This document shows, one piece after another, positions 3,545 to 3,620 of a DNA stretch of 4,312 nucleotides. This stretch comes from Escherichia coli (GTDB taxonomy: Bacteria; Pseudomonadota; Gammaproteobacteria; Enterobacterales; Enterobacteriaceae). The notes under the pieces were generated by a model. The model was not told the DNA's origin, searched no databases, and saw nothing but the letters and a program-made list of their open reading frames with translations. Made by a program: the position numbers and the translations under genes. The stretch lies in NCBI RefSeq assembly GCF_003334405.1, contig NZ_QOWM01000033.1; one strand, written 5' to 3'. Every line of letters starts with the position of its first letter. Within the stretch, counting starts at the first letter, position 1.

Positions 3545-3620
3545 GCCGACTTAGCTCAGTAGGTAGAGCAACTGACTTGTAATCAGTAGGTCACCAGTTC
3601 GATTCCGGTAGTCGGCACCA
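3545..3620 (+). tRNA. thrU: tRNA-Thr (anticodon UGU), 76 nt with encoded CCA
   Basis: Cloverleaf folded by hand: acceptor GCCGACT/AGTCGGC, D-arm GCTC-AGTAGGTA-GAGC, anticodon arm ACTGA-CTTGTAA-TCAGT, T-loop TTCGATT, 3' ACCA. The T-stem has one A-C apposition (3596/3606). Confidence 0.93.

Follow-up and report, generated by a model that had tools for sequence, protein, structure and literature searches.

The A•C apposition in the T-stem of the first tRNA gene of the window (the whole 4,312-nucleotide stretch of Escherichia coli DNA analyzed here, from contig NZ_QOWM01000033.1) is A52•C62, the wild-type state of E. coli tRNA-Thr(UGU), and it is fixed in the species. It is an ordinary wild-type feature of this tRNA, already known, documented and experimentally studied. 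We consider it probable that A52•C62 is kept by selection and does not represent damage, and that it tunes the affinity of the tRNA for EF-Tu. The comparative pattern reported below, which comprises the species spread of the mismatch, its Thr specificity and its alternation with weak 51-63 pairs, is a modest addition to this known feature.

The thrU gene and the register of its T-arm

Four tRNA genes, all on the plus strand, were detected in the window by ARAGORN, and cmscan matched each of them to the Rfam tRNA model. The first, at 3545–3620, is a tRNA-Thr gene of 76 nt including the encoded CCA, with the anticodon UGU (tgt at position 34 in the ARAGORN structure). It scored 73.8 bits against RF00005 (gathering score, 29; E = 1.9e-15; model positions 1–71 of 71), which ranks second among the four. 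Downstream lie tyrU (tRNA-Tyr(GUA), 3629–3713), in which every pair is standard; glyT (tRNA-Gly(UCC), 3830–3904); and thrT (tRNA-Thr(GGU), 3911–3986), whose T-stem, GGCAG/CUGCC, has A52-U62 and no mismatch. Over its full length the window matches many E. coli chromosomes at 100% identity, and the annotation beneath the match reads murB, birA, coaA, tRNAs and tuf; the locus order is murB-birA-coaA-thrU-tyrU-glyT-thrT-tufB, with coaA upstream of thrU. By structure, Rfam score, identity to E. coli and synteny, the gene in question is thrU of the E. coli tufB operon, where it is the first gene of thrU-tyrU-glyT-thrT-tufB.

In the cmscan alignment and by direct indexing, the 5′ strand of the T-stem (positions 49–53, ACCAG) occupies 3593–3597, the T-loop (positions 54–60, TTCGATT) 3598–3604 and the 3′ strand (positions 61–65, CCGGT) 3605–3609; the whole segment, 3593–3609, reads ACCAGTTCGATTCCGGT. 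The stem consists of A49-U65, C50-G64, C51-G63, A52•C62 and G53-C61, with A52 at 3596 and C62 at 3606. The earlier note had placed A3596 opposite C3606 in the T-stem, and both its coordinates and its bases proved exact. A52•C62 is the sole non-standard pair of the thrU cloverleaf, in which 20 of 21 pairs are standard by indexing. The covariance-model scoring that the note had proposed as a check gave the same result: RF00005 matched at 73.8 bits with a single flagged pair, at model columns 52/62. The conserved T-loop sequence GTTCGA and the G53-C61 pair are both present.

Posterior probabilities of the cmscan alignment were maximal for thrU. Another register of the T-arm was also tried and rejected: when the 3′ partners were slid by one to three columns, 9–49% of cells were paired, compared with 95% in register. 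Because pairing collapses in the slid registers, the register of the T-arm is not in doubt. In about 1 Mb of tRNA-rich loci, the 52-62 pair was standard in 208 of the 209 unique non-Thr(UGU) tRNAs among the matches listed, indicating that the mismatch in thrU stands above noise.

A52•C62 is native to E. coli

Of 5,425 matching E. coli records, 5,420 had the exact 76-nt thrU sequence as their best match, and all 5,420 were annotated as tRNA-Thr. Among 5,426 complete E. coli genomes, 5,421 carried the gene, with a median of one place in each. The mismatch can be repaired in one step by A52G or by C62U, both of which are single transitions. In the E. coli genome collection searched, there were zero exact copies of either repaired version, and every best match to a query carrying A52G or C62U was the wild type, at 98.7% identity.

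The earlier note had favored the reading that the apposition is the native sequence, and this reading is borne out by the identical gene in these records and by the full identity of the window to E. coli chromosomes. Comparison with the reference thrU, which had been set beforehand as the check, recovered the same apposition in several thousand copies. The alternative raised in the note, a substitution specific to the window, is excluded by the 5,420 identical records. Nor is there any difference from the published E. coli tRNA-Thr(UGU) (PMC3239215): the gene, the bases at 52 and 62 and the position in the operon are all the same. A52•C62 belongs to the wild-type sequence of a well-studied tRNA and is not to be marked as a lesion. 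As evidence, invariance within E. coli would by itself be weak, because the whole tRNA is invariant there.

Computed cost of the mismatch

With ViennaRNA parameters, the isolated T-arm hairpin had an energy of −0.1 kcal/mol in the wild type, −6.3 kcal/mol with G52-C62 and −4.8 kcal/mol with A52-U62. The corresponding values for the thrU cloverleaf were −21.5, −27.7 and −26.2 kcal/mol. The expectation that the apposition would weaken the T-arm, also expressed in the note, therefore holds in silico. For the bare wild-type transcript, the computed structure of lowest energy was one other than the cloverleaf, and both repaired variants folded as the cloverleaf, plus one extra pair extending the anticodon stem. 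Nearest-neighbor energies take no account of tertiary contacts or modifications, nor of a protonated A+•C wobble that may form; accordingly, we did not count the non-cloverleaf fold against the identity of the tRNA. The apposition is costly in the nearest-neighbor sense, which does not imply that the tRNA misfolds. The weakening of the T-arm seems to be conserved under selection and not to be a defect.

Conservation across species

We scanned species-representative genomes with a query that combined the anticodon arm and variable loop of the E. coli tRNA with an unconstrained T-stem behind them, and obtained at least 120 loci with at least 137 gene copies from about 90 species. The sample is restricted to tRNAs that share the anticodon arm and variable loop of E. 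coli, and the frequencies given here are sample estimates, not a census. Counted by organism among the matches listed, the 52-62 pair was G-C in at least 43, A•C in at least 27, A-U in at least 18 and C-G in at least 6, with the few organisms that have two stem types counted under each.

Among the matches listed, all of the A•C carriers (at least 27 organisms) were Gammaproteobacteria. They included Escherichia albertii, Enterobacter, Superficieibacter, Providencia and Photorhabdus; also represented were four Vibrio species, Enterovibrio, Photodesmus, Aeromonas, Haemophilus, Rodentibacter, Orbaceae, Psychromonas, Colwellia, Cognaticolwellia, Glaciecola, Kangiella and Acinetobacter. The A•C apposition was absent from all Bacteroidota, Firmicutes, Mycoplasma-like, cyanobacterial and archaeal sequences among the matches listed. 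Positions 1–73 of thrU were identical in the four Vibrio species, Enterobacter, E. albertii and Superficieibacter. Judged from the comparative data, the A52•C62 mismatch is old. Each of the four Vibrio species has several copies of the gene, some of them in Phe/Asn/Thr tRNA arrays.

Six kinds of A•C stem were found among the matches listed: ACCAG/CCGGU, GCCAG/CCGGC, AUCAG/CCGAU, CACAG/CCGUG, GUGAG/CCCAC and GAGAG/CCCUC. In an alignment of 14 distinct A•C-carrying sequences, the 49-65 pair was A-U in eight, G-C in five and C-G in one; the 50-64 pair was C-G in ten, A-U in two and U-A in two; and the 51-63 pair was C-G in twelve and G-C in two. Each of these three pairs varied on both sides yet was paired in 100% of the sequences. 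Positions 52 and 62 were A•C in 14 of 14, a constancy that follows by construction, as the set had been selected for A•C. What is informative is that the neighboring pairs changed through double substitutions, whereas the mismatch beside them, which one transition could have repaired, stayed in place. A different mismatch was seen in a distant lineage: tRNA-Thr(UGU) of an uncultured Clostridia bacterium has the T-stem GCGGG/CCCAU, with a C50•A64 apposition.

Specificity for threonine tRNAs

The specificity of the mismatch was examined in 440 tRNAs with ARAGORN structures, taken from the scanned loci and the window, which included 209 unique non-Thr(UGU) sequences among the matches listed. A•C at 52-62 was present in at least 15 of 57 unique Thr(UGU) sequences and in 1 of the 209 other tRNAs, again among the matches listed. 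This single exception is a Thr(GGU) gene with the stem CCCAG/CCGGG, from the gammaproteobacterial MAG P03SST1Cbin.11 (minus strand, position 1087 of the reverse complement of the locus). The Thr(UGU) gene of the same MAG is of the fully paired type. A pattern search for more Thr(GGU) genes carrying A•C gave no match, but the regular expression was probably too strict for this to be informative. In this sample the apposition is rare overall and concentrated in Thr tRNAs, a concentration that is predicted by an amino-acid-specific role such as EF-Tu compensation.

Alternation with weak neighboring pairs

Among the matches listed, there were 24 distinct T-stems, six with A•C and 18 fully paired. 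The 51-63 pair was C-G or G-C in all six A•C stems, whereas it was G•U, U•G or A-U in 12 of the 18 fully paired stems (one-sided Fisher p = 0.007, with stems counted without correction for phylogeny). In Pseudomonas, Stutzerimonas, Halomonas and Shewanella, for example, the stems were CCGGG/CCUGG or CCGAG/CUUGG, both of which have G51•U63. Pseudoalteromonas and Rheinheimera are exceptions: they pair C51-G63 together with C52-G62, giving a stem that is strong and free of mismatches, indicating that compensation is a tendency and not an absolute rule.

Phages provided further stems. The tRNA-Thr(UGU) of phages T4 and RB68 (positions 21–96 of their loci) has the stem GGCGG/CCGUC, with G52-C62 and G50•U64. 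A G50•U64 pair such as that in the T4-type stem causes the largest weakening of EF-Tu binding in the published table, +1.4 kcal/mol (PMC3239215). Phage JLK-2012 and Salmonella phage SD-15 kept the A•C apposition despite divergence elsewhere in the tRNA.

We put forward tentatively, and with more doubt than confidence, a broader reading of this pattern. A52•C62 could be one of two or three interchangeable, Thr-specific weakeners of the T-stem, together with a weak 51-63 pair (G•U, U•G or A-U) and G50•U64; Gammaproteobacteria and their phages would have swapped these designs repeatedly, and some genomes, such as that of Photorhabdus, would keep one gene of each. If this is true, A52•C62 is an evolutionarily maintained affinity dial, and the alternation could help to predict EF-Tu tuning at the sequence level, going further than the three-pair model.

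Proposed EF-Tu affinity tuning and alternative explanations

A52-C62 of E. coli tRNAThr has been called "very rare" (Schrader & Uhlenbeck 2011, PMC3239215). According to that paper, the mismatch alters what the neighboring 51-63 pair contributes to EF-Tu binding, and upon conversion to G52-C62, tRNAThr behaves like ordinary tRNAs in EF-Tu binding; the same text cites a dedicated study of A52-C62 (Saks, Sanderson, Choi, Crosby & Uhlenbeck 2011, RNA 17:1038). In both tRNAThr and tRNAfMet of E. coli, elements beyond the six canonical T-stem residues add to the EF-Tu binding energy (PMC3239215). The published changes in this energy are +0.8 kcal/mol for G51•U63, +1.0 for U51•G63, +1.1 for A51-U63, +0.5 for C51-G63 and +1.4 for G50•U64 (PMC3239215, Table 2). 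Set against the thermodynamic compensation model of the Uhlenbeck laboratory (PMC3239215), the thrU mismatch adjoins the tuning pair 51-63 and modifies its contribution, whereas 52-62 itself lies outside the canonical tuning pairs 49-65, 50-64 and 51-63, and its effect in thrU is indirect and specific to tRNAThr. In the sample studied here, lineages that lack A52•C62 usually have weakening pairs at 51-63 or 50-64.

Conserved, functional stem mismatches that act as determinants are known in other tRNAs. The mismatched 1-72 position of initiator tRNAfMet weakens EF-Tu binding (PMC3239215), and the non-Watson-Crick pair of human mitochondrial tRNAThr is reported as a further example (PMC5961198). 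Both differ from thrU in position, partner and organism. A nanopore epitranscriptome paper names thrU only for its T-loop and t6A37 signals, and positions 52 and 62 are absent from it; PMC11662937 names the study of Saks and colleagues in its reference list alone.

We regard tuning of EF-Tu affinity as the likeliest mechanism, acting through a distortion beside the 51-63 pair; one part of this is shown in published work, and the rest is inferred from the conservation, the Thr specificity and the alternation with weak pairs. The mismatch would distort or loosen the helix beside the pairs that EF-Tu reads, 49-65, 50-64 and 51-63, and Thr-tRNAThr would in consequence bind EF-Tu less tightly, within the range that is needed. 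An affinity tuned in this manner would permit both uniform binding in the ternary complex and timely release on the ribosome. Thr-tRNAThr would accordingly need a moderately weakened T-stem, with A•C as one of several routes to it; other lineages appear to reach the same end via G51•U63, U51•G63 or A51-U63, and phage T4 via G50•U64. A and C may pair here as a protonated A+•C wobble, similar in shape to G•U. A52•C62 offers a clear case of a conserved stem mismatch that serves a function instead of being a defect. Lying next to the pairs that set EF-Tu affinity, it is relevant to the matching of each tRNA body with its amino acid and to efforts to design tRNAs for non-natural amino acids.

It is unlikely, in our estimate, that the mismatch is maintained for a partner or a step other than EF-Tu affinity. 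Conservation and Thr specificity argue for a function and name no partner. Saks and colleagues reportedly described A52-C62 as a negative specificity determinant for EF-Tu; many T-stem changes reportedly cut or abolished growth in their hands, with no simple correlation with EF-Tu affinity, and the authors reportedly suggested the possible involvement of another step of translation. That in vivo phenotypes reportedly did not track affinity speaks for a role outside EF-Tu binding. Candidates on the side of the ribosome and the transcript are flexibility during accommodation or translocation and processing of the thrU-tyrU-glyT-thrT-tufB polycistron; others are the T-arm modification enzymes TrmA and TruB and a pH- or temperature-dependent folding via the A+•C wobble. 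Processing of the operon is hard to reconcile with the A•C copies of Photorhabdus cinerea and Providencia, which lie beside tRNA-Ser(UGA) and are not tied to the tufB operon. TrmA and TruB both act on all tRNAs, and so would leave the Thr specificity unexplained. More generally, the one experimental effect documented in PMC3239215 concerns EF-Tu binding, and the observed inverse relation with weak pairs at 51-63 or 50-64 is the one expected under EF-Tu tuning.

Less probable again is a tolerated frozen accident, in which contacts between the T-loop and the D-loop and the conserved G53-C61 pair hold the arm, and a near-neutral A•C is simply inherited. tRNA genes evolve very slowly, as seen in the identity of all 73 of 73 positions between E. 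coli and Vibrio, and persistence alone is thus weak evidence for selection; most carriers, moreover, belong to related gammaproteobacterial orders, as would fit a single ancestral origin. However, either of two transitions could repair the A•C, yet it was kept while three adjacent pairs turned over doubly. Among the matches listed, it also occurs in six stem contexts, including those of the distant Acinetobacter and Kangiella, is essentially limited to Thr tRNAs and co-occurs only with strong 51-63 pairs. Conversion to G-C, according to PMC3239215, measurably changes EF-Tu binding behavior.

A window-specific substitution, strain mutation or sequencing error that harms the T-arm can practically be dismissed: a predicted loss of about 5–6 kcal/mol in T-arm stability and the non-cloverleaf fold computed for the bare transcript would agree with it, but thrU is identical in 5,420 of 5,425 E. 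coli records and in Vibrio, Enterobacter and E. albertii, the published E. coli tRNAThr carries the same A52-C62 (PMC3239215), and the RF00005 score of 73.8 bits is the second best of the four tRNAs in the window.

Genomic context and mobile copies

In E. albertii, Vibrio, Rodentibacter, Acinetobacter and Colwellia, a Thr-Tyr-Gly-Thr cluster begins with the A•C copy. The cluster copies of Photorhabdus, Acerihabitans and Shewanella are fully paired and of the G51•U63 type; the stem of the Acerihabitans cluster copy reads GAGGG/CCUUC. Photorhabdus has two tRNA-Thr(UGU) genes, a cluster copy with CCGAG/CUUGG (G51•U63) and a separate copy with A52•C62. In Providencia, the A•C copy likewise lies outside the cluster, and the A•C copies of Photorhabdus cinerea and Providencia both adjoin tRNA-Ser(UGA). 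The occurrence of A•C copies outside a tufB-type cluster indicates that the mismatch belongs to the tRNA itself rather than to the transcript of the tufB operon.

Many prophage or viral contigs, in a listing of at least 120 viral loci, carry thrU-like genes in which ACCAG/CCGGU is kept and the D-loop is variable. One D-loop variant, AGCAGGCA, occurred at least 11 times among the matches listed. Escherichia phage phi467 has an identical copy of thrU, and the source entries of the viral copies include the phage record LN997803.1. Two of the viral copies contain just a 3′ half-tRNA and resemble duplicated integration sites. Prophage thrU-like copies probably explain the up to six matching places that were found in some E. 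coli genomes.

Upstream of thrU, a near-consensus promoter can be read from the sequence at 3502–3530, with TTGCAT at 3502–3507, a 17-nt spacer and TAGAAT at 3525–3530. An A/T-rich tract precedes it and a GC-rich GCGCGC stretch follows; only about 8 nt separate the likely transcription start from the mature 5′ end of thrU. These features would fit the strong, growth-rate-regulated thrU(tufB) promoter. A second natural mismatch was seen within the operon, in the D-stem of glyT, where U13 (3842) is opposite U22 (3851) and cmscan flagged the pair as non-standard.
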